Part shown: in pieces, positions 4,581 through 39,215 of the stretch
Numbering within the stretch: position 1 is the stretch's first letter
How the letters are laid out: every line of letters begins with the position of its first letter
NCBI GenBank assembly: GCA_012036375.1
Contig: JAAUOI010000001.1
Location: 1-39,719, forward strand
Reading direction: 5' to 3'
Length of the DNA: 39,719 nt
DNA from: Brachymonas sp.
Lineage (GTDB): Bacteria > Pseudomonadota > Gammaproteobacteria > Burkholderiales > Burkholderiaceae_C
Notes under the pieces: generated by a model
Database searches by the model: none
What the model saw: the letters and a program-made list of their open reading frames with translations, nothing else
What the model was told of the DNA's origin: nothing
Translations under genes and position numbers: made by a program

Positions 4581-4646
4581 TTTTTGAAGCGTTTTTGGCA
4601 CTTTGCCGGCATGGAATGTGCGCGGAGTGCTATTGTATTGATAGTA
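4581..4646 (+). repeat. 66-bp dispersed element, copy 1 (glyA-nrdR intergenic)
   Basis: TTTTTGAAGCGTTTTTGGCACTTTGCCGGCATGGAATGTGCGCGGAGTGCTATTGTATTGATAGTA; aligns without gaps to 9 other copies. Confidence 0.9.
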
Positions 4647-4673
4647 AATTGATGGCCAGTTGTGGGCTGAGGC

Positions 4674-4714
4674 TCTCGCCTTAGCCCTCTCCCGCAGGCA
4701 CAGGGGAGAGGGGA
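4674..4714. repeat. REP-like CCCTCTCCC...GGGAGAGGG palindrome downstream of glyA
   Basis: CCCTCTCCC (4685-4693) / GGGAGAGGG (4704-4712) perfect 9-bp inverted repeat, preceded by CTCTCGCCTTAG. Resembles the widespread proteobacterial CCCTCTCCC extragenic palindromes. Confidence 0.6.
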
Positions 4715-4735
4715 TCAGACCATCAAGACTGAGTG

Positions 4736-5980
4736 TCAGCCATACACCGGGAAGCGGCTGGTCAGTGCCACCACTTTGGCGCGCACGGCTTCGATGTTGG
4801 CCGCATCGCGCGGGTTGTCGAGCACATCAGCAATCAAATTGGCCGTGAAACGAGCTTCTTCGTCTTTGAAGCCGCGCGTGGTCATGGCGGGGGTGCCGAT
4901 GCGCACGCCGCTGGTGACCATGGGTTTTTCGGGATCGTTGGGGATGCCGTTTTTGTTGATGGTCATGTAGGCATCGCCCAAAATCGCCTCGGCTTCTTTG
5001 CCGGTGATGTGTTTGTTGCGCAGATCAACCAGCATGACGTGGCTTTCGGTGCGGCCGCTGACGATGCGCAGGCCGCGCTGCACCAAAGTTTCGGCAATCA
5101 CTTGCGCATTTTTGGCCACTTGGGCTTGATAAACCTTGAAGCTCGGATCGAGCGCCTCTTTGAAGGCGATGGCTTTGGCCGCGATGACGTGCATGAGCGG
5201 GCCCCCTTGCAGGCCGGGGAAGACTGCGCTGTTGATGGCTTTTTCGTGTTCAGCTTTCATCAAAATAATGCCGCCGCGTGGGCCGCGCAGGCTCTTGTGG
5301 GTGGTGGAGGTGACGACATCGGCGTGGGGCACGGGGTTGGGGTACACGCCTGCGGCGATCAAGCCGGCGTAATGCGCCATATCGACCATGAAAATTGCGC
5401 CGACTGCTTTTGCGACTTTGGCAAAACGCTCGAAATCAATTTTGAGCGCGTAGGCGGATGCGCCGGCGATGATGAGCTTGGGGCGCTTCTCGTGCGCGAG
5501 GCGCTCCATCGCGTCGTAATCGATCTCTTCTTTGGCGTTCAGGCCATAGGAGACGACGTTGAACCATTTGCCGCTCATATTCAGAGGCATGCCGTGCGTC
5601 AAATGCCCGCCTTCAGCGAGGCTCATGCCCATGATGGTGTCGCCGGGTTTCAAAAAGGCGAGGAAGACGGCTTGGTTGGCTGAAGCGCCGCAGTGGGGCT
5701 GGACGTTGGCACAATCTGCGCCGAATAGTTGCTTGACGCGGTTAATCGCCAGTGTTTCAGCCACGTCGACATTCACGCAGCCGCCGTAGTAGCGCTTGCC
5801 GGGGTAGCCCTCAGCATACTTGTTGGTCAGTTGCGTGCCTTGCGCTGCCATGACAGCAGGGGAGGCGTAGTTTTCGCTGGCGATCAACTCGATGTGATGT
5901 TCTTGGCGGGCGTTTTCTGCTTGAATGGCGGCAAAAAGCTCGGGATCGGTTTGTTCGATGAGGATGTTTCTGTTGAACAT
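4736..5980 (-). CDS. glyA: Serine hydroxymethyltransferase
   Basis: [38 protein letters not shown] (PLP lysine), FPGLQGGP. Confidence 0.99.
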
Positions 5981-6037
5981 GATTGGCAGTTCTGAGGAAG
6001 GTCAGTGATCCCGCGACAGATACAAACACGGAGGCGG

Positions 6038-6150
6038 GCTGCCCAGGCGAACGGCTGAACGCAGAACCTGTCATAAGACAGAGTGGTCTGCGGTGCGCTT
6101 CCCAGTGGTGTCCCACGTCGGTCTATTGACCTATCGCCAGTTGCGCACAC
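6038..6150 (-). ncRNA. ZMP/ZTP (pfl) riboswitch in the glyA leader
   Basis: Minus strand: GUGCGCAACUGGCGA...GUGGGACACCACUGGGAAGCGCAC...GCCGUUCGCCUGGGCAG. It has P1, P2, the GGCG/CGCC pseudoknot and P3 GCC..CGCCUGGGC, and sits upstream of a folate one-carbon gene. Confidence 0.92.
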
Positions 6151-6245
6151 AAGGAGTTTATCACTGGATGTTTGCGCGATGCCATGAGTAGGGCGCTCTA
6201 CCAGTTCGCCACGCAGTCAAGCGGTGACCAAAGAAGCCATCAAGG

Positions 6246-6311
6246 CGCTACAAATACAATAGCGCTTCGCACAATAACCACGCCGGCGATTAACTCAAAA
6301 TGCCTAAACCG
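6246..6311 (-). repeat. 66-bp dispersed element, copy 2 (alkA-glyA intergenic)
   Basis: Reverse complement CGGTTTAGGCATTTTGAGTTAATCGCCGGCGTGGTTATTGTGCGAAGCGCTATTGTATTTGTAGCG. Confidence 0.85.
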
Positions 6312-6349
6312 CGATAGTCCCACGCCCTCATGGACAATCTCGGTTAAAA

Positions 6350-7018
6350 TCAATACGCCACTGGCAATGGATCGAGCGAGCGCCAGAGATACCAAGTCGC
6401 CACACTGCGATAGGGCGTCCAGTTAGCTGCCACTTCTTTGGCCTCGCTGCGGCTGACTGATTCGCCGGAGAAATAATTTTCACTGATGCCGCGCAACATG
6501 CCGATGTCGTCCAGCGGGAGCACGTTGGGGCGCATCAGATGGAAGATCAGGAACATCTCGGCTGTCCAACGGCCAATGCCGCGAATGGCAACCAGCTCGG
6601 TGATGATGGCTTCGTCGTCCATACCGTCCCACTGTTTGACGCTCAGAGCGCCGCTGTCAAAGTGCAGGGCGAGATCGACAAGGTATTCGATTTTCCGAGC
6701 CGAGAGGCCGCAGGCGCGCATGTCGTCCACCTTGAGCTTGAGCACCTTGGCTGGCGTGAGTTTAGGCTTGGCAAGTATCGCGAAACGATCCCAAATCGTT
6801 TGCGCCGCTTGCACACTGATTTGCTGACCCACCACGGAGCGCGCCAGTGTGATGAACGCCTCGCCACGGCTTTGCAGGCATGCGTCGCCAAACTGCGGAA
6901 TCAGCTTGCGCATGACCCGATCTTTTTTCATCAGATGAGCACAAGCTTCAGCCCAATAAGCAGGAGTCGCCACTGAGGGAGCAACAGATTTGGTGATCTG
7001 AACCGCTTCTTTTTTCAT
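6350..7018 (-). CDS. alkA: DNA-3-methyladenine glycosylase II (AlkA/HhH-GPD family)
   Basis: LARSVVGQQIS, HhH motif IRGIGRWTAEMFLIFHLMRPNVLPLDD, WTPYRSVATWYLWRSL. Likely start is ATG 7018 after GGAG. Confidence 0.9.
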   Translation of the reverse strand: MKKEAVQITKSVAPSVATPAYWAEACAHLMKKDRVMRKLIPQFGDACLQSRGEAFITLARSVVGQQISVQAAQTIWDRFAILAKPKLTPAKVLKLKVDDMRACGLSARKIEYLVDLALHFDSGALSVKQWDGMDDEAIITELVAIRGIGRWTAEMFLIFHLMRPNVLPLDDIGMLRGISENYFSGESVSRSEAKEVAANWTPYRSVATWYLWRSLDPLPVAY

Positions 7019-7069
7019 AGCACTCCGCGCATATTCCATGCCGTGTAAATGCCGAAAAGGCTTAAAAAA
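7004..7069 (-). repeat. 66-bp dispersed element, copy 3 (overlaps the alkA start)
   Basis: Reverse complement TTTTTTAAGCCTTTTCGGCATTTACACGGCATGGAATATGCGCGGAGTGCTATGAAAAAAGAAGCG. Confidence 0.9.
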
Positions 7070-7082
7070 TGAGCCTTTGATC

Positions 7083-8504
7083 TCATGCTGCAGCCTCCCA
7101 GGTCGTACCCTGCGGACTGTCTTTGAGCACAATGCCTTGCGCAGCTAAATCCTTGCGGATTTGATCGGCCATTGCAAAATTCTTGGCGACTTTGGCGGCT
7201 GCGCGTTCAGCGATTTTTGACTGAATCGCTGCATCGTCCAGCGTTGCGCCTGATTGCAAAAATGCCTGCGGATCGCTCTGCAAAATACCGAGCAAACTGC
7301 CCAGGGCTTTGAGCTGTGCGGCCAGCGCCATTGATTTGCTGCGATTGACCTCGGCCGCCAAATCAAAGAGCACGGCCACCGCTTCAGAGGTGGCAAAGTC
7401 ATTGTCCATCGCAGCTTTGAAGCGAGCAGGGTGCTCGGCAGTCCAATCTATGTTTTTAATGCCAAATGTGCTGTTGGCCGGCATAGAATCTGCGCTAAGT
7501 GCTATGATTTCAGGAGCTATTGACAAGGCGGTGTACAAGCGTTTGAGTGAGGCTCTGGCATCTTCCAAATGCACATCCGAGTAGTTCAAACCACTGCGAT
7601 AATGGCTGCGCAGGATGAAAAAGCGAATCGTCTGGGCATCAAACTTTTGCAGCACGTCGCGGATCGTGAAAAAGTTGCCCAGCGATTTGGACATTTTTTC
7701 ATTGTCGATATTGACGAACCCGTTGTGCATCCAGTACTTGGCCATGGGTTTTGTGGACGCGCCTTCGCTCTGCGCGATTTCGTTTTCATGGTGGGGAAAC
7801 TGCAAATCCGCGCCGCCGCCGTGAATATCAAAGCTCTCGCCCAGCAAGGCGCAGCTCATGGCCGAGCATTCAATATGCCAGCCGGGGCGGCCTGCGCCGT
7901 AAGCGCTGTCCCACTTGGCCTCAGCGGGTTCGTCTGCTTTGGCAGATTTCCAGAGCACGAAATCCAGCGGATCTTCCTTGCCATCGAGCACAGCCACGCG
8001 CTCGCCCGCATGCAGCTCATCGAGCGATTTGCCGCTTAATTTGCCGTAACCGGGAAATTTGCGCACCGAAAAATTCACATCGCCGCTGGGGGCGCGGTAA
8101 GCAAGGCCGTTTTGCTCGAGCTGGCTCACGATGGACAGCATCTGCGGCACGTAATCGGTGGCGCGTGGGTCGTGATCGGGGCGTTCGATACCTAAAGCAT
8201 CAAAGTCACGGTACATTTCGGCGACCATGCGCTGGGTGAGTTGGCTCATGGTTTCGCCATTTTTGACAGCCCGCTGGATGATTTTGTCATCAATATCGGT
8301 GATGTTTTTGACATAAGTCACGGCATAGCCAGTGGCGCGCAGCCAGCGCTGAATCACATCAAACGCAATCGCCGAGCGGGCATGGCCGATGTGGCACAGG
8401 TCATATACCGTGATGCCGCAGACATACATGCGCACTTTGCCGGTTTCAAGGGGAACAAAATCCTCCACGCGACGCGAGAGCGTGTTGTAAATTTTCAATG
8501 CCAT
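7083..8504 (-). CDS. cysS: Cysteine--tRNA ligase
   Basis: [48 protein letters not shown]. Confidence 0.99.
7453..7518 (+). repeat. 66-bp dispersed element, copy 4 (in frame inside cysS)
   Basis: TTTTTAATGCCAAATGTGCTGTTGGCCGGCATAGAATCTGCGCTAAGTGCTATGATTTCAGGAGCT; encodes [22 protein letters not shown]. Confidence 0.88.
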
Positions 8505-8609
8505 GGTGTGTGTGAGTTGGGGGCGTGCGGTTAGGAGAAAACCAAAGCCTAGCCGCTACAATCGCAGCAGTATATCGCCCAAAATCTGGGCGCGTCTGAG
8601 AGAGAAAAT

Positions 8610-9632
8610 ATGCGCAAACCATTTTTTGCAGTTCCGTCTTTGTCGGCCGCTTTGGCATTGGCTCTCGGCTTGTGCCTGAGTACAGCTGCTTTTGCCGATT
8701 ACGCTGAAGTCAACCGTTTGATGCGTGCTGGCCAATTGGCCGAGGCCACCGCCAAGGCCGATCAATTCTTGGCTGGCAAACCCAAAGATCCGCAAATGCG
8801 CTTTTTGAAAGGCGTGATCCTGACCGAGCAGGGCAAACCACAAGATGCGATTACCCAGTTTACCAAGCTGATTGAAGACTACCCTGAGCTGCCCGAGCCC
8901 TACAACAACCTAGCCGTGTTGCACGCAGGCCAAGGCCAGTTTGACCGAGCCCGCGCTGCGCTCGAAATGGCGATTCGCACCAACCCCAGCTATGCCACCG
9001 CGCATGAGAATTTAGGCGATGTCTATGCCAAACTTGCCAGTCAGGCCTATAGCAAAGCGCTGCAATTGGACGGCACCAATACCGGTGTGCAGCCCAAACT
9101 GAGTTTGATTCGCGACTTGTTTGCACCTGGCGCGAAAGGCCAGCGCCCCACTTCCTCCAGCGCAGCTGCTGCCAAGCCAGCAACTGCCGTTGCCACCGCG
9201 CCTGTAGCGCCTGCCGCACCCGTTGCGCCTACAGCATCCGCTGGGCCTAAACCCGCCGCTACGCCCGCCGCTCCAGCAGTGCCTGCCGCAACCGCTGAAG
9301 GCAATTCAGACGAAGTCAAAGTCGCCGTGCAAGCTTGGGCCAACGCTTGGAGCCGCAAAGACATGAGCGGCTATCTGGGTGCTTACGGTAAAGACTTTGC
9401 AGCACCTGGTGGTCGCAAAACTTGGGAAGAAGAGCGCCGCAAGCGCATCGTCGGTAAAAACAAAATCAGTGTTCAGATCAGCAATTTGGATATCAAAGTC
9501 ACAGGCAACACCGCGCAGGCACGCTTTAAGCAAGACTATGACGCTGACAGTCTGTCGGTGAACAGCCGCAAAACCTTGGACATGGTGCGTGAAGGCAATC
9601 GCTGGGTGATCGTGCGCGAGTCCACGGGTTAA
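8610..9632 (+). CDS. Exported TPR protein with Ala/Pro linker and C-terminal NTF2-like (Csd6-type) domain
   Basis: Signal peptide; YPELPEPYNNLAVL / AHENLGDVY TPR motifs; AP-rich linker; VQAWANAWSRKD..YL..Y ... F.Q.Y ... K.L..W.I..E. Confidence 0.85.
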   Translation: MRKPFFAVPSLSAALALALGLCLSTAAFADYAEVNRLMRAGQLAEATAKADQFLAGKPKDPQMRFLKGVILTEQGKPQDAITQFTKLIEDYPELPEPYNNLAVLHAGQGQFDRARAALEMAIRTNPSYATAHENLGDVYAKLASQAYSKALQLDGTNTGVQPKLSLIRDLFAPGAKGQRPTSSSAAAAKPATAVATAPVAPAAPVAPTASAGPKPAATPAAPAVPAATAEGNSDEVKVAVQAWANAWSRKDMSGYLGAYGKDFAAPGGRKTWEEERRKRIVGKNKISVQISNLDIKVTGNTAQARFKQDYDADSLSVNSRKTLDMVREGNRWVIVRESTG

Positions 9633-9649
9633 CAGAAACAGTCTAGGTA

Positions 9650-9678
9650 GGAACTTCGTGGGCTGCGCCATGCTCTGC
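9650..9678 (+). promoter_or_regulatory. Possible sigmaE-type promoter for the L,D-transpeptidase/ppiA operon
   Basis: GGAACTT-N17-TCTGC in the intergenic gap; resembles the GAACTT-N16/17-TCTGA consensus. Confidence 0.3.
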
Positions 9679-9735
9679 GCGGTGTTTTGGATAACGTTGT
9701 TAAAGTCTTGAAGCCGCCTTGGCGCGGCATAACTC

Positions 9736-11073: not shown

Positions 11074-11728
11074 TGTTGAATCGTTTGTTGGGCTTAAATT
11101 TAAAGCCAAATCGTCGTTTAGCCGGCATGTTAATTGCGTCGAGTGCTATTCTTTTAGGAGTTTCTGGTGTGAGCGCACAGTCCACATCAGCCGCTTCCGC
11201 GCCAGCAGCAGCACCCGCCGCAGCCAAATCTACAGCTCCTAAAGTCAAGATCGTCACCTCCATGGGCGACATCGTGATCGAGCTCAATCCAGACAAAGCG
11301 CCCAAGACGGTGGAAAACTTTCTGCAGTATGTGAAAGACAAGCATTACGACGGCACGATCTTTCACCGCGTGATGGATGGCTTCATGATCCAAGGCGGCG
11401 GCTTCAACGCCGATATGCAGCAAAAACCTGTGCGGCCGCCAATTCCACTGGAATCGAGCAATGGTCTCAAAAATGATCGCGGCAGCATTGCCATGGCGCG
11501 CACCAATGTGCCCAACTCGGCCACCGCACAATTTTTCATCAATGTCGTGAACAACAACAACCTCAACGCTCCTTTACCTGACGGCTACGGCTATGCGGTT
11601 TTCGGCAAAGTCATTTCCGGTATGGAGACGGTAGACAAAATTCGCCAAGTGGCCACCGGTAACAAAGGTCCGCATGGCAATGTGCCTCAAACCCCGATCA
11701 CCATTACTTCAGCAACTTTGGAAAATAA
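11070..11728 (+). CDS. ppiA: Periplasmic cyclophilin-type peptidyl-prolyl isomerase (stop lost by a 1-base homopolymer error near 11725)
   Basis: Signal peptide; [43 protein letters not shown] with one more A gives EK*, just before the ppiB ATG. Confidence 0.9.
11097..11162 (+). repeat. 66-bp dispersed element, copy 5 (encodes most of the ppiA signal peptide)
   Basis: AATTTAAAGCCAAATCGTCGTTTAGCCGGCATGTTAATTGCGTCGAGTGCTATTCTTTTAGGAGTT = [22 protein letters not shown]. Confidence 0.85.
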
Positions 11729-11730
11729 TC

Positions 11731-12237: not shown

Positions 12238-12264
12238 GCTGCCAACACGTAAGCGAGGGCGCGC

Positions 12265-13141
12265 ATGAGTTTCGATGAAATCCAAGCGCCACGGCAGTGG
12301 CGCTGCGTGGATTTCATCTCCGACTTGCATTTGCAAGAATCAGAGCCCGCCCACATTTTTTGGCTTGGCGTGGCTATTTGGAACGCGACGCCTGCTGGAT
12401 GCAATTTTTATTCTGGGCGATTTATTTGAGCTGTGGGTGGGCGACGATGTACTCAGCGGCCCAGTCGATGCGAATTTGATCGCTCGCCACGAAGGCTTGC
12501 ACTTTGAAGACCGATGCACGCGCGTGCTGCATTTTGCGGCACAACAAAAGGCCATCTATTTCCTGCATGGCAATCGCGATTTTTTGATTGGCGAGCACTT
12601 TTTAGCCAGCAGTGGTGTGCAGTTGCTCAGTGATCCCAGCGTGTTGATCTTTGGCGAGCAGCGCTATTTGCTCAGTCATGGCGATGCGCTGTGTTTGTCC
12701 GATGACGATTATCAACAGTTTCGCATCAAGGTGCGCAGCAGCGAATGGCAGCAAAGCTTTTTGGCCACGCCCTTGCAAGAACGCTTGCAGCAAGCGCGAC
12801 AAATGCGCACCCAAAGCGAAGCGCGCAAGCAGAGCCAACAAGCCGCGCAGCAGCCCTTTAGCGATGTAGATGCAGCAGTGGCTGTGCAATGGATGGATGC
12901 CACCCGCAGTTCGCATTTCATTCACGGTCATACACACGAAGGCGTGGATCACCCGTTGGAGTCGGCCCAAGGCGTGGGTGTGCGCCATGTGTTGCCTGAT
13001 TGGCATGCCACTGGCCGCCAGCCGCGCGGGCATGCGCTGCGATTGAGCTTGGACACGCGCATGAGCGACGAGTCTGCGGGTGATGTTGATCTCGTCAAGA
13101 CTAAGGTGCAGACCGTGGTGCAACGCGTCAGCACGGTTTAA
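12265..13141 (+). CDS. lpxH: UDP-2,3-diacylglucosamine hydrolase (apparent frameshifts at about 12350-12400)
   Basis: ATG 12265 gives MSFDEIQAPRQWRCVDFISDLHL; then ILGDLFELWVGDD, HGNRDFL, SHGDALC, IHGHTH. Confidence 0.92.
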
Positions 13142-13164
13142 TCACATCAGCAACCGATCTGTCG

Positions 13165-14473: not shown

Positions 14474-14497
14474 GGTCAGCATGGCATGATACCGGCT

Positions 14498-15724
14498 ATG
14501 AGTTGGATTGATCGCGTTCGCGCCGAAATACCCGTTTTGATTGAGACTTTGCGCACCTTTCCTTGGCGCAATACCGCCGCTGTGCTGCGTCTGCGGTTTC
14601 GGGAAGACCGCCTAGGGCTGACCGCTTCGAGCCTGACGTTTACCACTGTGATCGCACTGGTGCCCTTGTTCACGCTGATTCTTGCCGTATTCACCGCTTT
14701 TCCCATGTTTTCTACCATGCAGACCACGCTACAAACATGGCTGGTACAAAGCTTGGTGCCCGATAACATTGCCCGAAATGTGCTGGGTTATTTGACGCAG
14801 TTTGCCGCCAAAGCATCGCGCTTGGGCGTGGTCGGCTTGATCGCTTTTGTGGTGACGGCTCTGGCACTGATATTCACCGTGGACCGAACCTTCAACAGCA
14901 TTTGGCGTGTGCGGCAGACGCGCCCGTTTGCCCAGCGCTTGCTGGTGTATTGGGCGGTGCTCACGCTCGGACCAGTGCTGCTGGCTGCTAGCTTGACACT
15001 CACCTCGTATGCGATTTCGGCCTCACGCGGTGTGGTCAGTACGATGCCCGGTGGATTGAAATTCTTACTCAACAGCTTGGAGTTTGTGCTGTTGGCAAGC
15101 GCCATGGCTGGCTTGTATCGTTTTGTGCCCAACACGCGGGTCAAGTGGGCGCATGCTTGGGCGGGCGCAATATTTGTGGCGATTGGCTTTGAGGTGGCCA
15201 AAAGTTTGCTCACGTGGTATTTGCGCAGCGTGCCGACGTTCTCTGCGGTGTATGGTGCATTTGCCACCGTGCCGATTTTGCTGCTGTGGTTTTACATCGC
15301 ATGGTTGATCGTGCTGTTTGGCGCGGTGATCGCAGCGTATTTACCGAGTTTGCTCTCGGGCGTTGCACGCAGAGGTGGTACTCCGGGCTGGAATTTCCAA
15401 TTGGCTTTTGAAACGATTCAAGCCCTAGATGCCGCCAGCGGCACACCAGGAAAGGGGCTCACGCAGCAGCAACTGGCGGTGCAATTGCAGGTTGATGATT
15501 TGCAATTAACGAGGCCACTAGAAGCTTTACGCCAGCTCGATTGGGTTGGCTTATTGGACAGCGATGATGCAGATGCCCAGCGCTTGGTCTTGATCGCTGA
15601 CCCTGAAAGAACCGCCTTGCTACCCTTGGCACATGCCTTGCTGTTACCTGCTTCCAGTATTGCTTTTTGGAGCCAAAATGGCCTATCGCCAGCGCAAAAT
15701 ATGCGCGGAATGCTATTAAAATAA
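14498..15724 (+). CDS. YihY/BrkB family inner membrane protein
   Basis: ASSLTFTTVIALVP, FNSIWRV, YWAVLTLGP, VYGAFATVPILLLW; multiple TM segments. Confidence 0.93.
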   Translation: MSWIDRVRAEIPVLIETLRTFPWRNTAAVLRLRFREDRLGLTASSLTFTTVIALVPLFTLILAVFTAFPMFSTMQTTLQTWLVQSLVPDNIARNVLGYLTQFAAKASRLGVVGLIAFVVTALALIFTVDRTFNSIWRVRQTRPFAQRLLVYWAVLTLGPVLLAASLTLTSYAISASRGVVSTMPGGLKFLLNSLEFVLLASAMAGLYRFVPNTRVKWAHAWAGAIFVAIGFEVAKSLLTWYLRSVPTFSAVYGAFATVPILLLWFYIAWLIVLFGAVIAAYLPSLLSGVARRGGTPGWNFQLAFETIQALDAASGTPGKGLTQQQLAVQLQVDDLQLTRPLEALRQLDWVGLLDSDDADAQRLVLIADPERTALLPLAHALLLPASSIAFWSQNGLSPAQNMRGMLLK

Positions 15725-15729
15725 TAGCA
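15664..15729 (+). repeat. 66-bp dispersed element, copy 6 (supplies the yihY C-terminus and stop)
   Basis: TTTTTGGAGCCAAAATGGCCTATCGCCAGCGCAAAATATGCGCGGAATGCTATTAAAATAATAGCA; perfect TGCTAT-N7-ATAGCA. Confidence 0.92.
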
Positions 15730-15750
15730 TTTACCACACACAGAAGGGGT

Positions 15751-21927: not shown

Positions 21928-22350
21928 GCGCAGCCACCACCGTCAGTCGCAGCCTCAGCGGCAGCCAAGGTGCCCAACCCGCATGCGGATAGCTCTTTCG
22001 ATCCACCCCATAGCAGGTGATCAGTAAAGCTGCCATGAGCGGCAACCCGGCGTAGGCGGGCATGATGGAGCCAATCCAAGCCACGATGCTGGGCACCACG
22101 CCCCAGATCAGGTGAAAATTTCGCTTCTCAGCAGGTATCTGCGCCGCAATACCCCAATGAATTCCACCTAAAAACGACGCAATGATGGCTGCATAAGCCG
22201 TCAAACCAATCGCCAGCCAGTTGCGCAAATCTGGTTCCACGGTCCACAGCAGCAGCGCAGGCAACACAAAGGAACCCAACCTGCATAGCCCAATGTGCGG
22301 GCTAGCAGGCTGGGGGAGCTGAGGTGTTCAGAGTTGTAATTGGAGGCCAT
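21896..22350 (-). CDS. DUF3429 family membrane protein (frameshift near 22275)
   Basis: ATG 22350: MASNYNSEHLSSPSLLARTLGYAG; then FVLPALL..YAAIIASFLGGIHWG..LRLRLT. Confidence 0.85.
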
Positions 22351-22415
22351 TTTTTAAGCGATTTCGGGTTCTAGCCGGGATTTTATATGCGCCGAGTGCT
22401 CATTTGTTGATAGCA
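22350..22415 (+). repeat. 66-bp dispersed element, copy 7 (abuts the DUF3429 start codon)
   Basis: TTTTTTAAGCGATTTCGGGTTCTAGCCGGGATTTTATATGCGCCGAGTGCTCATTTGTTGATAGCA. Confidence 0.88.
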
Positions 22416-25360: not shown

Positions 25361-25426
25361 TACTATTATTTTAATAGCATCCCGCGCATATTTTATGCCG
25401 GCTACCACCCCAAAACACTCAAAACT
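25361..25426 (-). repeat. 66-bp dispersed element, copy 8 (fills the gap between convergent aroQ and mlaB)
   Basis: Reverse complement AGTTTTGAGTGTTTTGGGGTGGTAGCCGGCATAAAATATGCGCGGGATGCTATTAAAATAATAGTA. Confidence 0.9.
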
Positions 25427-26474: not shown

Positions 26475-27235
26475 TTATTTTTTGTCTTCTGCATCGGGTT
26501 TGTAGTTGTCTTCTTCTTGCCCTGGGCGGAAAATTTCTGCGCGGCGGTTTTGTAAGAAGGCATCGCGGGTGAAACTGTATTTGTCCAGCGCAGCCTCATC
26601 GAGCAATGTGCCCAAACGCAGCAAGCCAGTTCGCGTATCTACGATGCGCAGCACATTCGTGGCATTGCGTGTACGTACATGGTCGATTTGTGCCACAGGG
26701 TCGTAGCGATTTTCAAGTGTGATCGTGGTGGCATCGCGCACCGTGCTCGGGCCAAAGAGCGGCATCACCACATAAGGGCCAGAGGGCATTCCCCAGCGGC
26801 CGAGCGTCTTGCCTAGATCTTCGTTGTTTCGCTCCAGCCCCATTCGCTGGCGATATCGAGCACGCCACCGAACCCGATTATTGTGTTCACACCAAATCGC
26901 ATGAAGTCCTCAGCTGCGACTTTCGGGCGCAACTGCAGGACACCGTTCAGGCCGGACCACAGATCTTCCAGATTGTTGAAAAAATTCGTCACGCCTGCGC
27001 GCAAGGGCTGTGGTGTCACGGCACGGTAGCCTTGCGCAACAGGCTTGAGCACCGCTTTGTCTAAGCCTTCGTTGAAGCTGAACATGCTGCGGTTAAAAGG
27101 CTCGAATGGATCCGTAGGGTTACGCGCAGGACCAGAGGCGCAGCCTGCGAGAAAAGTGGCAAAAATAAGGCAAATAATGGTTCTAGCCGGCGTATTTGCT
27201 GCGCAGAGTGCTATTGATTTCGTAGTGTATTGCAT
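26475..27235 (-). CDS. mlaA: VacJ/MlaA lipoprotein (frameshift near 26843)
   Basis: LAG|C lipobox, DPFEPFNRSMFSFNE, RFGVNT..GFGGVLD; second ORF EDLGKTLG.WG..SGPYVVMPLFGPSTVRD. Confidence 0.93.
27162..27227 (+). repeat. 66-bp dispersed element, copy 9 (in frame in the mlaA signal peptide)
   Basis: AAAATAAGGCAAATAATGGTTCTAGCCGGCGTATTTGCTGCGCAGAGTGCTATTGATTTCGTAGTG; encodes TTKSIALCAANTPARTIICLIF. Confidence 0.83.
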
Positions 27236-27733: not shown

Positions 27734-27746
27734 GAATGGCTCTCCT

Positions 27747-29392: not shown

Positions 29393-29393
29393 G

Positions 29394-29656: not shown

Positions 29657-30850
29657 ATGCAAGACCCCATCGTCATCGTCTCCGCCGCCCGCACGCCCAT
29701 GGGCGCTTTTCAGGGCGATTTCGCATCGCTGGCTGCACATGATTTAGGTGGCGCGGCGATCAAAGCGGCTGTGGAGCGCGCTGGCCAAAACTCAAAATTT
29801 ACGCCCGATGTGGTCAATGAAGTCTTGTTTGGCAATTGCCTGATGGCAGGGCAAGGCCAAGCGCCGGCGCGGCAAGCGGCGTTCAAAGGTGGTTTACCCA
29901 AAGGCGCAGGCGCTGTCACGCTTTCCAAAATGTGCGGCTCAGGCATGCGAGCAGCCATGTTTGCTCACGATATGCTGGCTGTAGGCTCGGTGGATGTGAT
30001 AGTGGCTGGCGGCATGGAGAGCATGACGAATGCACCACATCTTTTGCTCAAAGGCAGAAGCGGCATCCGCATTGGGCATGATCGTGTGTATGACCACATG
30101 ATGCTCGATGGCTTGGAAGATGCTTATGAGCCTGGCCGCGCCATGGGCACGTTTGGCGAAGAGTGTGCCGACAAATACAAATTCACCCGTGAAGCGCAAG
30201 ATACATTCGCCATCGAAAGCGTCAAGCGTGCGCAAGCCGCTACGAATTCAGGAGCATTCGCCGCAGAAATTACGCCGGTCACAGTCAAAAATCGCTCCGG
30301 AGAAGTGCAAATCAGCGTCGATGAAGGCCCGCTCAAAGCCAAGCTCGACAAGATTGCCACGCTCAAGCCCGCCTTCAAGAAAGATGGCACGATCACCGCA
30401 GCATCCAGCTCCTCCATCAACGATGGCGCAGCCGCTTTGGTGATGATGCGGGAGAGTACGGCTGCCAAGCTCGGCTGCAAGCCCTTGGCAAAAATCGTGA
30501 GCCACGCGATGCATGCGCAAGAACCCAATTGGTTCACCACCGCGCCTGTGGGCGCAACGCAAAAAGCCTTGGCCAAAGCCGGCTGGAGCGTGAGCGATGT
30601 GCAGCTTTGGGAAGTCAACGAAGCCTTCGCCGTCGTGCCGATGGCGCTGATGGCCGAGCTCAAAGTCGATCACAGCATCGTCAACGTCAATGGCGGTGCA
30701 TGTGCGCTCGGCCATCCGATCGGCGCAAGTGGTGCAAGGATCATGGTTACGCTCATACACGCCTTGAAAGCACGAGGCCTAAAAAATGGTGTGGCGACAC
30801 TATGCATCGGCGGTGGTGAGGGAACGGCGGTTTGCTTGGAAATGGTTTAA
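29657..30850 (+). CDS. Acetyl-CoA C-acyltransferase (thiolase)
   Basis: ARTPMG, KMCGSG, AGGMESM, EVNEAFA, GHPIGASG, CIGGGEG. Confidence 0.97.
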   Translation: MQDPIVIVSAARTPMGAFQGDFASLAAHDLGGAAIKAAVERAGQNSKFTPDVVNEVLFGNCLMAGQGQAPARQAAFKGGLPKGAGAVTLSKMCGSGMRAAMFAHDMLAVGSVDVIVAGGMESMTNAPHLLLKGRSGIRIGHDRVYDHMMLDGLEDAYEPGRAMGTFGEECADKYKFTREAQDTFAIESVKRAQAATNSGAFAAEITPVTVKNRSGEVQISVDEGPLKAKLDKIATLKPAFKKDGTITAASSSSINDGAAALVMMRESTAAKLGCKPLAKIVSHAMHAQEPNWFTTAPVGATQKALAKAGWSVSDVQLWEVNEAFAVVPMALMAELKVDHSIVNVNGGACALGHPIGASGARIMVTLIHALKARGLKNGVATLCIGGGEGTAVCLEMV

Positions 30851-30857
30851 TCCATCT

Positions 30858-31731
30858 ATGACCAAACAACAGCCACTTGCAGAAGTCTTTGGATACCCGC
30901 TAGCTGATCAAAGCATTAGGGCTGTAGCGGCTCGTAAAAATCGACTGTGCCCATTCAACAACAAAGTCCCTAATTGCACCAAAGATAAGGCAAAGAATCC
31001 GCTGGGCGTTTGTAGTGTGTACCACGACAACGCGCCAGTGATCACATGCCCGATTCGCTTCAGGGAGGATTGGCAGATAACCGCTGATGCTGCTATTTTT
31101 TTCTTTGGCGCAGATGTAGCTTGGAGTTCGTTGACGGAAATCAGGCTAAATGATGCCTATGGCAAGTCGGCGGGCAACATTGATGTCGTGCTGGTTGCTT
31201 ATGACGACAAGGATCGCGTGATCGACTTCGGCGCGCTTGAGATTCAAGCTGTTTACATTTCAGGAAATGTGAGAGAGCCCTTCGAGCAATTCATGCTCAA
31301 CCCAAAGAAAAATTCTGAGATGGATTGGTCAAAAGAAGCCAATTACCCGCGCCCAGATTATTTGTCGTCCTCCAGAAAACGACTTGCCCCGCAATTGCTT
31401 TTTAAAGGTGGAATCTTTAAATCTTGGGGCAAGAAGTCTGCGGTTGCTCTCAACAGTTCCTTCTTCAACACTTTCGCCCGCGCTCAAGCGCGTGAAGGCA
31501 GAGCAAGCAGATATTGCATGGTTGATTTATGACTTGATCCTCAATCAAGCGACGGGCAGATATGAGTTGACCAAGGTGGACGAGGTATTCACGTTGTTCG
31601 ACGAAGCTCTACGCCAGATCACAACAACACAGGCCGGTTCCATCGAAAATTTCAAACAGCTTTTACAAAGCAAATTGGATGAGCAGCTCGAATCCGCGCC
31701 AATTACCCGCAGTTTGGATTCGCCGTTTTAA
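30858..31731 (+). CDS. NotI-family restriction endonuclease (frameshift near 31475)
   Basis: EVFG; Cys4 pattern CPF..C.K...GVCS...CPIRF; GNIDVVL...ALEIQAVYISG PD-(E)xQ core; RPDYLSSSRKRLAPQL..KG. Continues in ORF 31384..31731; lower GC than the flanks. Confidence 0.82.
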
Positions 31732-31733
31732 AG

Positions 31734-32622
31734 ATGCAGCAAGACTTTTTTGAAATTTCCAACGCAGACACCCTGCGTTCGCTTAAAACAGTGAACGTGG
31801 CATCTGTGCCTCAGCGCAGTCCGTTTCGTTATCCCGGTGGTAAAAACTTGGTTTGTTCCTGTATTTCGCCGATGGATGCAAAGCCTGAGCAGTAAACCCA
31901 AGCTCTTGATCGAACCCTTCGCTGGCGGAGCAACCATTGCACTGACTGCTGTTTGCGAAAACTGGGTGGATCATGCCTTGATCATTGAACTTGACCCCGA
32001 TGTTGCTGCCGTTTGGCAAGTGGTTGAGGCGGGTGATGCTCTTGCCCTAGCAGATTGCATCTTGACGTTTGATTTAACTTATGACAACGTGCAATCAGAG
32101 CTAGCCAAAGAGGCGAAAACAACGCTTGAGCGTGCATTCAGAACAATTTTGAAGAATCGTACATTTCATGGCGGTATCTTAGCGCCAGGTTCGGGACTGA
32201 TCAAAGCTGGCGAAGCAGGCAAAGGTTTAGCTTCGCGTTGGTATCCAGAAACTCTGGCAAAGAGGTTCACTGCTTTACATCAGGTGCGTCATCGCTTGAC
32301 CATCGAATGTCGTGATTGCATGCCAGTTTTAGAGCGTTACAAAGACGACGCACAAGCAGTGTTTTTTGTTGATCCGCCTTACACAGCAGGCGGCAAAAGC
32401 GCAGGTAAACGCTTATACGCATATTTTGAATTGAATCACAATAATTTGTTTGAGGCTTGCTCACAATTGACTGGTGATTTTCTGATGACATACGACGATG
32501 CCGATGAGGTACATGATTTTGTACATCAGTATTCCTTGATGAGCAAGCTAGTGCCTATGAAAAACACGCATCACGCACCGATGACTGAGTTGGTGATAGG
32601 CCGAGATTTGACTTGGCTGTGA
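31734..32622 (+). CDS. D12-class (Dam-like) N6-adenine DNA methyltransferase (extra A at about 31845)
   Basis: ATG 31734; NVASVPQRSPFRYPGGKTW, IEPFAGG (motif I), FVDPPY (motif IV), LMTYD. Confidence 0.9.
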
Positions 32623-32640
32623 ACTAGATAGGTTGTTCGC

Positions 32641-33306: not shown

Positions 33307-33335
33307 TCACAATATTTTCAAAGAGCAGTGTTCCC

Positions 33336-34466: not shown

Positions 34467-34562
34467 GGTGGCAGCGTTTCGCGGCGCTTAGATGGCGTTT
34501 CATCGCATCGCCTTGGCATATGTGGCAAGCTTCGGTGACACTTGTGTCATTAGGAGTCCGTC

Positions 34563-35012
34563 ATGTCGCTTGATTTCATATTGGCCAGTGGCCATCACAT
34601 TGCACTGTTCTTAATGATCGCCGTGCTCGGCGGTGAAGCCTTGCTGCTGCGGCATGCGCCTAGCGCGGAGGTGTTGAAATCGCTGGGACGTTTGGATGCG
34701 CTCTATGGTTTGAGTGCGGTGGCTTTGCTGCTGATAGGCAGTGCGCGCCTGAGTTTGGGCGCGAAAGGGATTGAGTTTTATAGCAGCAACCCGGTGTTTT
34801 GGCTCAAGATCGCGCTTTTTGCAGTGATCGGGCTGATCTCCATCTGGCCGACCATGCGCTTTATTCGTTGGCGCAAAGCCTTTGCAGCGACTGGCGCATT
34901 GCCTGATGCAGTAGCGTGGGTGAGTACGCGCAAATTGGCGATGGCGCAACTTCATCTTCTGCCATTCGTGGCGATTTGCGCTGCGGCGATGGCGCGAGGC
35001 TTGGGGCATTGA
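34563..35012 (+). CDS. DUF2214 family membrane protein
   Basis: D.LYG.SA, KG.EFYSSNPVFWLKI, SIWPTMRFIRWR, AAAMARGLG; AGGAG RBS. Confidence 0.85.
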   Translation: MSLDFILASGHHIALFLMIAVLGGEALLLRHAPSAEVLKSLGRLDALYGLSAVALLLIGSARLSLGAKGIEFYSSNPVFWLKIALFAVIGLISIWPTMRFIRWRKAFAATGALPDAVAWVSTRKLAMAQLHLLPFVAICAAAMARGLGH

Positions 35013-35056
35013 CGTAGCTGCATTCAAGTGCTGCTGATTTCTTGCATACTAGAGGC

Positions 35057-36175
35057 ATGCAAAACACTTCTTCTCAAAAAATTTCCCCTGAAAAACGTGC
35101 GCTTGGCCAATCTGGCTTAAAGGTGCATCCGATTTGCCTCGGCACAATGACTTTTGGTGAGCAGGTCAATGAAAAAGACTCTCATGCCATTCTGGCGCAC
35201 AGCTTGGAGCGTGGCGTGGATTTCATGGACACGGCGGAGATGTATCCCGTGCCGCCCACGGCTGAAAAATACACGGTGACTGAGACCATCATTGGTAATT
35301 ATTTCAAGGCCAATCCAGGTGCACGCAGCAAGTGGACAGTGGCCACCAAGGTGGCCGGGCCAGCGCGGGGCATGGATTGGGTGCGTGGTGGGAGTTTGGA
35401 TGTGTCGCCTGCGGCTATCCAAGAAGCATGCGAGTGCAGCCTGCGCCGCTTGCAAACCGATGTGATTGATCTGTATCAAATCCATTGGCCGGTGAGGCAT
35501 GTGCCGGCGTTTGGTATTCCGTATTTTGTGCCAGAGCTGGACAAAGAGCGCGCCAGCAGCACGCCGATTCATGGGCAGTTAGAGGCGCTCTCCAAACTGG
35601 TCAAGCAAGGCAAGGTACGGACGATTGGCTTGTCGAATGAGTCGCCGTATGGCGTGATGGAATTTGTGCGGCTGGCGCAGCAGCATGGCCTAGAGCGTAT
35701 CGTGAGCGTGCAAAACCCGTATTGCCTGACCAACCGCATCGTAGACAACGGCTTGGATGAGGTGATGTATCGCACGAACGTGAGCTTGCTGGCTTATTCG
35801 CCGCTAGGCTTTGGCGTGCTCACGGGCAAATACGATGCGATGGCGAGCTTGACAGATGCCAACGCATCCGCAGAGGCGAAAGCGGGGCGCATGGCGATTT
35901 ATGAACGCTTTCAGCAGCAGCGCTGGGGTCGTCCAGAGCATTTGGCCGCAGCGCGGCGCTACAACGCGCTGGCTCAAGCGCATGGAATGACACCCACTCA
36001 GCTCGCTTTAGCTTTTTGCTACCAAAATTGGCGTGTCGCCAGCACGATCATTGGCGTGACATCGCTCCAACAACTCGACGAATGCTTGGATGCGTGGCAT
36101 ACGCCCCCACTGTCCCAAGAGCTGCTTGCCCAGATCGATAGCATTCGCTGGGAAATCCGTGATCCGGCGCTATGA
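35057..36175 (+). CDS. tas: Aldo/keto reductase (Tas-like)
   Basis: ICLGTMTFGEQ, DTAEMYPVPP, SLRRLQTDVIDLYQIHWP.R, IGLSNE, LAYSPL. Confidence 0.9.
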   Translation: MQNTSSQKISPEKRALGQSGLKVHPICLGTMTFGEQVNEKDSHAILAHSLERGVDFMDTAEMYPVPPTAEKYTVTETIIGNYFKANPGARSKWTVATKVAGPARGMDWVRGGSLDVSPAAIQEACECSLRRLQTDVIDLYQIHWPVRHVPAFGIPYFVPELDKERASSTPIHGQLEALSKLVKQGKVRTIGLSNESPYGVMEFVRLAQQHGLERIVSVQNPYCLTNRIVDNGLDEVMYRTNVSLLAYSPLGFGVLTGKYDAMASLTDANASAEAKAGRMAIYERFQQQRWGRPEHLAAARRYNALAQAHGMTPTQLALAFCYQNWRVASTIIGVTSLQQLDECLDAWHTPPLSQELLAQIDSIRWEIRDPAL

Positions 36176-36200
36176 AAATCGACGTATAATTGGAGGCTTC

Positions 36201-36275
36201 GGGCGATTAGCTCAGCGGTAGAGCACTGCATTCACACTGCAGGGGTCACATGTTCGATCCATGTATCGCCCACCA
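36201..36275 (+). tRNA. tRNA-Val (anticodon CAC)
   Basis: GGGCGAT/ATCGCCC acceptor stem + ACCA; D-arm GCTC..GAGC; anticodon arm CTGCA-TTCACAC-TGCAG; T-arm ACATG-TTCGATC-CATGT; TATAAT at 36185-36190. Confidence 0.97.
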
Positions 36276-36294
36276 GATTTTTCTGAACCCGAAT

Positions 36295-36326
36295 AAGCCT
36301 TGTGTTGAAAGACGCAAGGCTTTTTT
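36295..36326 (+). terminator. Intrinsic terminator after tRNA-Val
   Basis: AAGCCTTGTGTT-GAAA-GACGCAAGGCTT followed by TTTT. Confidence 0.85.
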
Positions 36327-36341
36327 CATGCGTGCGGAGAT

Positions 36342-36851
36342 TCAGACAGGCTTCGCGGGAGCCGGCAAGATGAGCTGCGCTTCTTGCACCACACGCAGAC
36401 AATCTTTGATGTGCTGCTCGCCGAGCCAGCGCACAGCGGTGTAGTTCAAACCTGCGGAGAGCAGGGTGCCGGCGATTGGGACGAATTTGGCAGCTTGAGC
36501 GGCTGTGAGGCGCATACCGACTGCTTTGGCTGTGACGATGATCAATTCTTTGGTGAGGAATTTGCCGACCAGCGTGCCGCCGATCAGACTGATAGCGATT
36601 TGTACGCGCTCACGTTGTTTGGGCGAAAGTTGCGCGATTTGTGTGGGCAGGAGGCCAAATTCTTCGCTGATTTGTGGCAGGAGCTTGGAGAGCAAAGCAG
36701 CATCGACTGCCCAATCCAAGCCCGGCACAGGCACTGCGCCCGCAGCGGCAGCTACGAGCGCACGGCGCGAGAGTAGCTTGCGAGCCCGCTCGCGCGCGAG
36801 GGTCTGCGCGGGCGTGAGATCAACCGAAGATTTATGTGGCACTGCCGCCAT
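36342..36851 (-). CDS. Hypothetical protein (DUF697-like)
   Basis: AAAGAVPVPGLD.AVD, AAKFVPIAG; translationally coupled to the upstream gene. Confidence 0.75.
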   Translation of the reverse strand: MAAVPHKSSVDLTPAQTLARERARKLLSRRALVAAAAGAVPVPGLDWAVDAALLSKLLPQISEEFGLLPTQIAQLSPKQRERVQIAISLIGGTLVGKFLTKELIIVTAKAVGMRLTAAQAAKFVPIAGTLLSAGLNYTAVRWLGEQHIKDCLRVVQEAQLILPAPAKPV

Positions 36852-37113
36852 CTGAACCGCCGCCAGACTTCTTGGTGACCAAGCCGTAGATCACGAGCAA
36901 GATGATCGCGCCGACCACGGAGGCAATGAAACCAGCAGCATCACCTTGCTTGTACAAGCCGAGAGCAGCGCCTGCATAGGTGGCGATGAATGAGCCGGCG
37001 ATACCGAGCACGGCGGTCATGATCAGGCCGAGTTTGTCATCGCCGGGTTTGAGGGCGCGGGCAATCAAGCCGACGCTGAAGCCAATAACGATGGTTCCGA
37101 TGATGCTCATCAT
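36832..37113 (-). CDS. GlsB/YeaQ/YmgE (transglycosylase-associated) membrane protein
   Basis: IVIGFSVGLIARALKPG...LGIAGS...FIASVVGAIILLVIY; AGGAGA RBS. Confidence 0.9.
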   Translation of the reverse strand: MMSIIGTIVIGFSVGLIARALKPGDDKLGLIMTAVLGIAGSFIATYAGAALGLYKQGDAAGFIASVVGAIILLVIYGLVTKKSGGGSDGGSAT

Positions 37114-37191
37114 GATGATTTCTCCTGTTGTGATGCGTGTGCCCGAATCGGGCATGCATCACTTTACACCAAGGATGCCTCACTGCGAGCT

Positions 37192-39215
37192 TCAAGCAGC
37201 CATCAGGCCATCAATGCGCTCGGAGAGCTCGAGCCATTTCCATTCTGCATCTTCAATTTCTGCATCAACAGCAGCCAAGCGCTTGTTGGATTCGATCAAC
37301 TCGGCGCTGGGCAAGGGTTGGATCAACTTCTCATGCAGCGCGGCTTGCTCGGCTTTAAGCGCTGCGATACTTTCTTCCAGTTGCTTGAGGCGGTTTTTCA
37401 AAGGTTTGGCTTTTTCTGCCAGCGCCATGCGCTGACGCGCTTCTTCTTGCTTTTGCTCTTTACTCTTGAAAGTGCTAGGAGGCTCATTTTTTAAGCCTTT
37501 TTGGGCATTGGTCGTTATGGAATGTGCGCCGAGTGCTATTGTTTTAATAGTATCTAGAACATCACCTTGAGCGACTTGACTCAAGCTTTCGCGGCGTAAC
37601 TTGGCTTGCTCCAGCAAGTATTTTTGGTAGTCGTCCAAATCGCCATCAAAAGGTTTCACGCCACCGTCTGCCACCAACCAGAACTCATCGCAGACACTTC
37701 GCAGCATCGCGCGGTCATGGCTGACGAGCATCACCGTGCCTTCAAACTCATTGAGCGCCATTTGCAACGCTTCGCGCGTGGTCAGATCCAAATGGTTGGT
37801 CGGCTCATCAAGCAACAATAAATTCGGTTTTTGCCAAACGACCATCGCCAGCACGAGCCGGGCTTTTTCGCCGCCGCTCATGCTGCCCACCGCTTGGCTC
37901 ACCATCTCGCCAGTGAACAAGAAGCCGCCTAGAAAATTGCGCAGCTCTTGCTCACGCCCGGGTGGGCCCACATCTTTGGCGAGGCGAATCATGTGCTCCA
38001 GCGGCGAGCTGTTTCGTGCAACACATCCAATTCTTGTTGCGCAAAATAACCAATGGAGAGCCCTTTGCCTTCCGTGATCTTGCCGCCCAATGGGGCGAGC
38101 TGCCGCGCGACGGTTTTGACGAAAGTGGATTTGCCTTGACCGTTCGCGCCGAGAATGCCAATGCGCTGTCCAGCCATCACGGAACGGCTCACGCCATTCA
38201 AAATTTTGATGCCGCCGTTGTCATTGGCATAACCTAGATCAGCCGCTTGAATTGAGAGCATCGGGTTGGGAATGCTGGTGGGCTCTTTGAATTCAAACTG
38301 AAAATCAGCGGCGGTGAGAACGGGTGCAATCCTCTCCATGCGCTCCAGCGCTTTGACACGGCTTTGCGCTTGTTTGGCTTTGCTGGCCTTGGCTTTGAAG
38401 CGATCAATGAAGTGCTGCAAGTGCGCAATTTTTTCTTGCTGCTTGGCAAACGAGGCTTGCTGCTGCACGATGCGCAGAGCGCGTTGCTCTTCAAAGAAGC
38501 TGTAGTTACCGCCAAAGCGCGTGATCTGACCTTGCTCGATGTGCACAGTGACGCGGGTGACGGCATCCAAAAACTCACGGTCGTGGCTGATGATCACTAA
38601 AGTGCCAGCAAATCGGGTGAGCCAACTCTCTAGCCAGACGAGTGCATCCAAATCGAGGTGATTGGTCGGCTCATCCAGCAGCAGCAAATCGGCAGGGCAC
38701 ATGAGCGCACGCGCCAGCTGTAAGCGCATACGCCAGCCGCCAGAAAAGCTATTGACCGGCTTTTCAAGCTCGTCAATACGAAAGCCCAAGCCGAGAATCA
38801 AGGCTTGTGCGCGAGAGCGGGCATCGTGTGCTCCGGCATCGTGCAACTGGCTGTGCAGTTCAGCGATCTCTAGACCTGTGGCCTCTGTGTGCGCGGTTTC
38901 GTCGGCCAGCTCTGCACGATGGAGTTGCTCCTGCAATTCGAGCAATCGTGTATCGCCGGTTAAGACGAAATTCGTGGCGCTGTCTTCTGTCTCGGGCATG
39001 TGCTGCAAGACCTGTGCGATGCGCCAGCCGCTGGGCATGAAAAATTCGCCGCCGTCTTCGTGCAGTTGCCCGGTAAGCAAGGCGAACAAGCTGGATTTGC
39101 CCGCGCCGTTGCGGCCAACAAGTCCCACTTTTTCACCCGGCTGAATGGTGCTGCTGCAATCTTGCAGTAGCACTTTGGCTGCGCGACGCAGGGTGATATT
39201 TTTGAGTGAAATCAT
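37192..39215 (-). CDS. ABC-F family ATPase, YheS-like (frameshift near 38012)
   Basis: Two ABC domains: GRNGAGKS / FSGGWRMRL / LLDEPTNHLD and GANGQGKS / MSGGEKARL / LLDEPTNHLD; KAKQAQSR linker; coiled-coil C-terminal domain; no TM segments. Confidence 0.94.
37487..37552 (+). repeat. 66-bp dispersed element, copy 10 (in frame in the ABC-F linker)
   Basis: TTTTTTAAGCCTTTTTGGGCATTGGTCGTTATGGAATGTGCGCCGAGTGCTATTGTTTTAATAGTA (54/66 identical to copy 1); encodes TIKTIALGAHSITTNAQKGLKN. Confidence 0.92.

Follow-up and report, generated by a model that had tools for sequence, protein, structure and literature searches.

A length-invariant 66-bp DNA element in hundreds of genomic copies in Brachymonas and other Comamonadaceae, a candidate self-DNA uptake tag

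The window analyzed here comprises 39,719 nucleotides of Brachymonas sp. (contig JAAUOI010000001.1, assembly GCA_012036375.1), the longest contig of a 2.98-Mb, 76%-complete assembly. Between and inside its genes lie scattered copies of a 66-bp element. Ten of them had been described in an initial annotation made from the letters alone; their positions and strands proved correct, and all ten align without gaps. We found an eleventh, weaker copy that had been overlooked, inside a thiolase gene at 30238-30303 (39 bits). In a CysS tree the genome groups with named Brachymonas and a named Comamonadaceae record (support 100/100); the tree is of a single gene with many weak forks and serves for placement only. 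The copies, with the two parts of the element that are referred to below, are as follows.

4581-4646, plus strand: element copy between glyA (upstream, minus strand) and nrdR; 80 bits
4605-4627, plus strand: lineage-specific centre (element positions 25-47), first copy as example
4628-4646, plus strand: family-constant right dyad GCTAY-N7-RTAGY (element positions 48-66), first copy as example
6246-6311, minus strand: element copy downstream of the HhH-GPD glycosylase gene and upstream of the glyA ZTP riboswitch; 38 bits after iteration
7004-7069, minus strand: element copy at the cysS/glycosylase junction, overlapping the predicted start codon
7453-7518, plus strand: antisense element copy in cysS, within the linker that precedes the DALR domain
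11097-11162, plus strand: element copy directly past the stop of the L,D-transpeptidase gene
15664-15729, plus strand: element copy on the last codons and stop of a BrkB/YihY-family gene, at a convergent junction
22350-22415, plus strand: element copy in a long divergent spacer
25361-25426, minus strand: element copy directly past the aroQ stop
27162-27227, plus strand: antisense element copy within the 5' portion of the mlaA coding sequence
30238-30303, minus strand: element copy inside the thiolase gene; the congener G014 has a weak version of the same length here
37487-37552, plus strand: antisense element copy in the ABC-F ATPase gene, at the boundary of the ATPase domain and the C-terminal domain

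At the 7004-7069 site a match stands at the same place in many genera, each with its own variant of the centre (hereafter dialect), and is missing in other genera. The cysS copy at 7453-7518 is present in most congeners examined, and conserved residues encode its right dyad. The placement of copies inside genes (cysS 7453, mlaA 27162, thiolase 30238, ABC-F 37487) had escaped the initial annotation, which was right on spacing, copy number and family range.

The columns reported earlier as invariant, TG at 39-40, G42, GCT at 49-51 and AG at 63-64, hold in 10/10 copies, and T5, G9, T23 and C27 are invariant in these copies too. A profile built from the ten copies gave 827 genome matches at ≥20 bits and none in block shuffles. 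The iterated profile found 822 copies at ≥20 bits and 796 at 30 bits, again with none in shuffles and with few scores between 10 and 30 bits, so the expectation of hundreds of copies per genome was correct. Invariance of length also extends to the whole genome: with the profile split at position 35, 709 matches had zero offset versus 3 at ±1, and with a split at position 45 the numbers were 724 and 2, while splits in the left third are too weak to inform on spacing. The strong columns are the A/T tracts at 2-5, 12-15, 33-37 and 56-59, GCC at 25-27, TGCG at 39-42, GCT at 49-51 and AG at 63-64, and the dyad centres lie 21-24 bp apart. Outside full copies, the right dyad by itself is likewise in excess in this genome (G000; 49 versus 3 at 18 bits), which suggests partial or decayed sites.

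In orthologous pairs from G000 and G014, which were selected by score (only 2/63 failed), GCT at 49-51 was kept in 61/61 cases, whereas the variable columns approach the level of non-orthologues, and four-fold sites between the two genomes are 51% identical (31% random). Fixed spacing, retention of the invariant columns and near-saturation of the variable ones agree with the earlier proposal of selection on spacing, as in a multipartite protein-binding site. Contigs of other runs (stromatolite metagenome label, two studies) cover the window region, and none of the indels listed is element-sized; the best-covering outside run may be the source sample itself. RNA datasets covering the region were absent from those listed. 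One X3 contig covers 5783-16492 with 120 differing letters and 21 gaps, and no conspecific contig was found among 80 metagenome loci (best GlyA identity 90%). We conclude that the element is a real, family-wide and strongly constrained multipartite DNA site.

Gene context was taken from our own gene caller (3258 genes). Wholly coding copies number 322 of the 822 (39%), whereas about 616 would be expected; they comprise 171 in sense and 151 in antisense orientation. The copies in tandem spacers split 147/147. Spacer occupancy is 0.29-0.50 for convergent, 0.18-0.26 for tandem and 0-0.15 for divergent spacers, short divergent spacers being nearly empty (0/40 and 3/81). Low-GC contigs carry no copies, the top codon-adaptation decile of genes has 0.005 copies per kb, and the occupancy of convergent spacers does not rise with the codon adaptation of the upstream gene (0.43, 0.54, 0.49, 0.34). 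Strand counts revealed no replichore polarity in 1.2 Mb of G014 (183 versus 169, with positive skew throughout) or in the closed G021 chromosome (51 versus 55, mixed along its length), and G000 shows a weak imbalance (333 versus 281). A plus-strand excess in the closed-genome listings was set aside as a listing artefact. A polar or region-bound site of the Chi, KOPS, matS or parS type, judged by the known features of these sites, was rejected because the element has neither replichore polarity nor confinement to the origin or terminus.

As an element-free reference for the coding copies we used G018, with no copy in 694 kb by the Brachymonas profile; G021 was rejected as an outgroup because it carries its own dialect at the same sites. 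Among 43 coding copies compared with G018, the net indel was 0 amino acids in 11, at most 4 in 24 and at least 21 in 3, with an identity of 23% inside the element and 59% overall. Control windows of low identity show the same positive net-indel skew, and we therefore discarded this skew as evidence of insertion. The right dyad in cysS is encoded by residues homologous to outgroup residues. From the sizes of the net indels and this homology, we conclude that most coding copies replaced existing sequence and that some added residues.

Across the family the element consists of a constant frame, an A/T tract plus GCTAY-N7-RTAGY, and a centre that switches genome-wide between genus dialects. The centre reads GCCGGCA-N7-TGCG in this genome, GCGCYY-N7-RRGCGC in G021, GGCR-N7-TGCC in G202 (445 matches), GTCC-N9-GGNC in G206 (279 matches) and GTCAGCGCC in G053, and is of the GGYCAY type in G095 and G087. 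Old orthologous sites bear each genus's own dialect. Neither these dialects nor the overwriting of coding sequence had been foreseen in the initial annotation, nor that fragments of the element were already listed as motif pairs (in the table of PMC5217627).

With the centre left free, at least 30 matches were found in 53 of 200 family genomes (controls: at most 13). Matches to the frame numbered 316 in Acidovorax sp. Leaf78, 235 in Paracidovorax konjaci, 12 in Comamonas avium, 1 in Variovorax N23 and 0 in Roseateles noduli. Every pattern count is a minimum, and a count of zero is no proof of absence, since low counts with the first patterns were dialect misses and not losses. In the listed genomes of other families in the order (245 searched, with the fixed centre only), the pattern that fixes the centre gave at most 4 matches. 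The distribution suspected from the start, Comamonadaceae, was confirmed in that the element is restricted to one family among those searched. Three genuine-looking copies on C65 and C86 of G262, a genome of another family, represent contamination or transfer.

Five plasmids together gave 12 matches versus 8 in controls, two or three of them clear, and blastn of one copy against plasmids returned a single chance match. A glyA search of plasmids gave 217 records; the 30 that were listed include no chromosome of a comamonad. Viral contigs have at least 121 matches. At 79 of 80 viral loci the neighbouring genes lack a close homologue in this genome, and the neighbours scanned against Pfam (77/115) include terminase, portal, tail tube, antirepressor and methylase genes. 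Beyond the matched copy, the phage contigs have further full copies inside genes of their own, about 1 per 38 kb (9 per 338 kb), and phages of temperate type are among the carriers. At eight loci (L551, L560, L581, L608, L611, L614, L616 and L619) the element lies near the 3' end of a lambda-type terminase large-subunit gene; this shared position is possibly one inherited site.

We propose, with a probability of roughly 0.4, that the element is a giant self-DNA tag for natural transformation, analogous to the DNA uptake sequence (DUS) and the uptake signal sequence (USS) and kept by biased uptake and recombination. Tags of this sort are known from two bacterial families, and this would possibly be the first one beyond them. 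In this proposal, a conserved factor would read the constant right dyad and the A/T tracts, and a lineage-specific factor would read the centre. DNA with a better site would be taken up and recombined more often, weak proto-sites would be improved by substitution wherever this is tolerated, and after a change of reader hundreds of old sites would be rewritten in place. A drive by uptake would account for copies that overwrite coding sequence and contain more information than needed, for dialect switching, for rarity in foreign DNA and for random spacing on the kb scale. The information content is 65 bits in coding and 69 bits in intergenic copies, whereas about 13 bits suffice arithmetically to locate 822 sites in the genome, an excess of the kind that drive would be expected to produce. 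The population-genetic hallmarks of DUS and USS, as given in the parts consulted of PMC2817400, PMC2397512 and PMC3630211, resemble those found here, and the consulted part of PMC4212676 describes Acidovorax temperans and A. facilis as naturally transformable.

ComEC was found in 196 of 201 family genomes and DprA and PilQ in 5/5 genomes tested; as nearly all members of the family have competence genes, finding them is not informative. Several observations weigh against this proposal. G087 may count among them: it has 164 matches but just the 5' part of comEC (194 codons), situated at the edge of a contig. Within a single dialect, Brachymonas genomes differ strongly in their FimT/PilV/PilW cluster, with hypervariable pilins (FimT, PilV, PilW, PilE-like), and the cluster occurs in element-free genomes as well, so that no ComP/PpdA-like reader is evident among the pilins compared; searches with ComP_DUS, FimT and tyrosine recombinases yielded no candidate for the reader protein. 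In a gonococcal DUS control (339 in 400 kb) the near flanks were not phased and an exclusion zone was lacking (observed/expected 0.73-0.89 at 70-450 bp); close pairs were numerous, with 69 gaps of less than 30 bp. The element behaves in the opposite way. The element has 66 bp plus flanks, compared with about 13 bp for DUS and 31 bp for full-length USS. DUS and USS measure about 10-32 bp in the literature excerpts consulted; the element is accompanied by about 300 bp of phasing and an exclusion zone below 450 bp, both lacking in the DUS control, and unlike DUS it does not form frequent inverted terminator pairs (3/501 gaps below 200 bp). For Verminephrobacter eiseniae, a species with indirect evidence of selective uptake, the table of PMC5217627 has one unrelated motif pair. 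To summarize, the element resembles an uptake sequence in its population genetics, and in two tested features that mark membership of the DUS/USS class it differs.

The fimT gene of the window (3383-3994, minus strand) encodes a C-terminal GRIR form of the GRxR motif, which is a motif of DNA-binding FimT proteins, and the type of the pilin cluster varies among congeners; pilV and pilW look frameshifted.

The element also has properties beyond its core, and a phased A/T signal extends past the 66 bases, which the initial annotation had missed. The A/T tracts in the element recur every 10.8 bp. In the flanks the phasing can be followed between about -120 and +160, where it exceeds jittered nulls; it makes a half-turn jump near -30 and has no single mirror centre. 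The flank phase is identical in the sense, antisense, tandem and convergent classes and in G014, where it is not independent because the sites are mostly orthologous. On the right flank the phasing exceeds that of control A-tract anchors; at -44 and -66 the controls are equally strong but in another phase, and the genome has a general 11.3-bp periodicity away from elements. In 73 phage copies flank phasing was not above the null, a test of low power. Only at distances of less than about 450 bp are pairs of elements scarcer than expected (0.09-0.52 of two nulls); at larger distances spacing is near random apart from 0.8 at 1000-1500 bp. Close pairs are rare, with 3 gaps below 200 bp among 501 and two copies in only 8 of 1568 spacers.

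Covariation is local and of the AAA/TTT shape type only. The dyads show no compensatory pairing (positions 52-62: observed 511, expected 510.9), and folding of the element is weak (mean z -0.4 and -0.7), which suggests that the site is read as double-stranded DNA. A hairpin or single-stranded structure had looked attractive from G-T-compatible variation in the right dyad and was rejected because pairing equals expectation. Inversion of the spacer between the dyad arms was discarded because the top spacers mostly occur without their reverse complements. Structured RNA was likewise rejected, as there is no covariation and no strand bias to transcription, and an Rfam scan of the window returned only tRNA and the ZTP riboswitch, with no match to the element. 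The element is likely a protein-wrapped site.

These features would also fit an intracellular DNA-wrapping site for chromosome topology, a close rival that is only slightly less probable than the uptake tag. The constant dyad would be the docking site of a sequence-specific nucleoid protein, or of gyrase together with a helper, which would bend some 300 bp of DNA. Loops would be pinned in this way, or positive supercoils relieved behind genes, and ordinary selection would maintain each site. The 10.8-bp period is near the 10.75 bp of the gyrase motif arms in the consulted part of PMC6379681, phasing covers about -120 to +160 in coding and non-coding copies alike, and the exclusion zone below 450 bp is similar in size to the phased footprint. 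The graded occupancy of convergent, tandem and divergent spacers, the restriction of covariation to AAA/TTT shape and the full copies in phages' own genes, at about 1 per 38 kb beyond the matched one, point in the same direction. The spacer gradient, however, is equally explained by promoter avoidance, and convergent occupancy does not rise with upstream codon adaptation. The gyrase motif in the same source is degenerate, 130 bp long and symmetric, whereas the element is near-invariant and asymmetric. Wrapping would not explain the random kb-scale spacing, the lack of a link to expression or the nearly empty large plasmids. The low counts in Variovorax N23 (1) and Comamonas avium (12) speak against it too, and genome-wide dialect switching in genes would be harder to explain by site-by-site selection.

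An ancient repeat of the repetitive extragenic palindromic (REP) or miniature inverted-repeat transposable element (MITE) kind, spread by a transposase or recombinase and then frozen, domesticated and partly overwriting its targets, is an unlikely origin. In 1.2 Mb of G014, a position could be assigned to 164 of the 796 G000 copies, and 148 of these are shared; conversely, 167 of 333 G014 copies were placed, with 157 shared. This sharing of 90-94% of placeable sites with G014, together with the fixed spacing, supports the earlier rejection of a neutrally decaying MITE. No transposase occurs among the 46 open reading frames (ORFs) of the window that were scanned, as had been noted, and tyrosine recombinases occur genome-wide in carriers and non-carriers alike, with no candidate among them. 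In favor of a repeat are the REP-like context at gene 3' ends, a nearest-neighbour identity slightly above a star-phylogeny simulation (95th percentile 59 versus 54-56 of 66), 21-31 extra residues in 3 of 43 coding copies, with residues often added in the highest scorers, and nine intergenic comparisons that differ by 45-122 bp. These nine are among the unshared sites, which also include weak versions of the same length in G014, a point against insertion at several sites. One length-difference site was traced through the genus: among 12 congeners with a match, 2 lack the element there, most plausibly through loss. A second adjoins a different repeat and could be either a gain or a loss. The top near-identical pairs share their flanks, and no families of identical copies with different flanks occur among them; tandem clusters, compensatory pairing and strong folding are lacking too, and the element is neither a BRE repeat nor matched in Rfam. 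Current mobility of the element is largely refuted.

Some sites show unusual arrangements. One spacer (G000:C323:1074, G014:C1:448769) holds the element in opposite orientations in the two species, by inversion or independent rebirth. The cysS gene of G005 (L008) has tandem 24-bp duplications of the right part of the element, and G000:C53 has near-identical copies in repeated segments of one gene. A different repeat of 300-480 bp, with short terminal hairpin words and partly BRE-like by eye, was seen at L536 and L537 (G001, G009) and L535 (G003); it shares a convergent junction with one element and is a second repeat family of the genus.

A regular-expression search for LysR-type proteins found 2 and was dropped. 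An operator of a global transcription factor, such as a LysR-type tetramer on the T-N11-A right dyad, is very improbable: T51-N11-A63 with CTAY-N7-RTAG has the format of a LysR-type site and the dyad centres are 21-24 bp apart, but the element is absent from short divergent spacers (0/40, 3/81), hugs stop codons in either orientation and lies inside genes in 39% of cases. A 2017 paper argued likewise for its fragments in the parts consulted (PMC5217627).

Other features of the window are ordinary or concern the assembly. At its left end (1 to about 600) a PilY1-like ORF (8-1165, minus strand) runs into unrelated, G+C-richer sequence that is barely covered by other runs, and this is likely a chimeric assembly end. 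The split mlaA (26842), the split ABC-F gene (38010) and the disturbed ORF 12275-13141 (at 12352-12397) are due to single-base indels that do not occur in contigs of other runs; they are likely assembly errors and not pseudogenes. The ZMP/ZTP riboswitch upstream of glyA (6034-6154, minus strand) is ordinary. A lower-G+C stretch without the element (30786-32622) with genes for a NotI-family endonuclease and a D12-class adenine methyltransferase is likely an acquired restriction-modification island.

On balance, we lean towards the view that Comamonadaceae have a site of a kind not described elsewhere: a 66-bp signature with two readers, around which some 300 bp would be wrapped. It would have arisen de novo in hundreds of genes, changed genome-wide from one genus dialect to another and passed into phages of the family. 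Such a site would be either a third and far larger class of uptake signal that sets species barriers, or a sequence-encoded grid for chromosome folding. In the parts of the literature consulted, sequence-specific uptake of self DNA is described for two bacterial families. A third uptake system would account for the barriers between species in this large family of freshwater, soil and wastewater bacteria, and it would offer a simple way to raise transformation in Comamonadaceae. If the site instead organizes supercoiling, it would be an unusual architecture signal, strong enough to rewrite about 300 proteins.

The element appears to have been noticed before as fragments only, as far as the consulted parts of PMC5217627 (Tong et al. 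2017) go, where these are listed as potential novel motifs without explanation. The motif pairs GCTTAT-N5-AAGCG of Acidovorax ebreus and ATAGCT-N22-CAAAAG of Polaromonas naphthalenivorans in that paper are fragments of the element in other dialects and have the same bias to convergent spacers; it lists 140 pairs in Rhodoferax ferrireducens, and the 2 rows compared both fit the element. The parts consulted differ from the present account in having no full element, family survey, dialects, coding overwrite, phasing or function, and we found no description of the full element or its function in the literature covered by our search, with most subscription journals outside it; PMC2755013 offered nothing that bears on it. 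Like the gyrase motif and strong gyrase sites in the consulted part of PMC6379681, the element has A/T versus G/C arms phased at about 10.8 bp and is enriched downstream of genes, and unlike that motif, which is degenerate, 130 bp long and symmetric about the cleavage site, it has a near-invariant, asymmetric core and longer phasing. With REP sequences, bacterial interspersed mosaic elements (BIME), MITE and BRE (PMC3110155, in part) it shares hundreds of copies near gene 3' ends and a preference for convergent spacers. BRE itself, a G+C-rich, tandem-forming repeat of 75-91 bp, was rejected as unrelated in sequence by eye comparison with the supplementary list S1 of that paper. Unlike REP, BIME and MITE, the element shows no hairpin covariation, clusters or recent mobility, and 39% of its copies are in genes. 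HIP1 of cyanobacteria is similarly abundant, selected, variable between lineages and present inside and outside genes, and roles in transformation and in the chromosome are debated for it; it is an 8-bp palindrome linked to methyltransferases, whereas the element is a 66-bp multipartite site. Finally, in the consulted parts of PMC2817400, PMC2397512, PMC3630211 and PMC7811141, DUS of Neisseriaceae and USS of Pasteurellaceae, like the element, occur in hundreds of copies on both strands and without replichore bias. They also lie inside genes at poorly conserved residues, mostly without insertion (3 of our 43 coding copies could be full-length insertions), are scarce in foreign DNA and plasmids and form lineage dialects around a constant core, and USS shares with the element its spaced A/T tracts.

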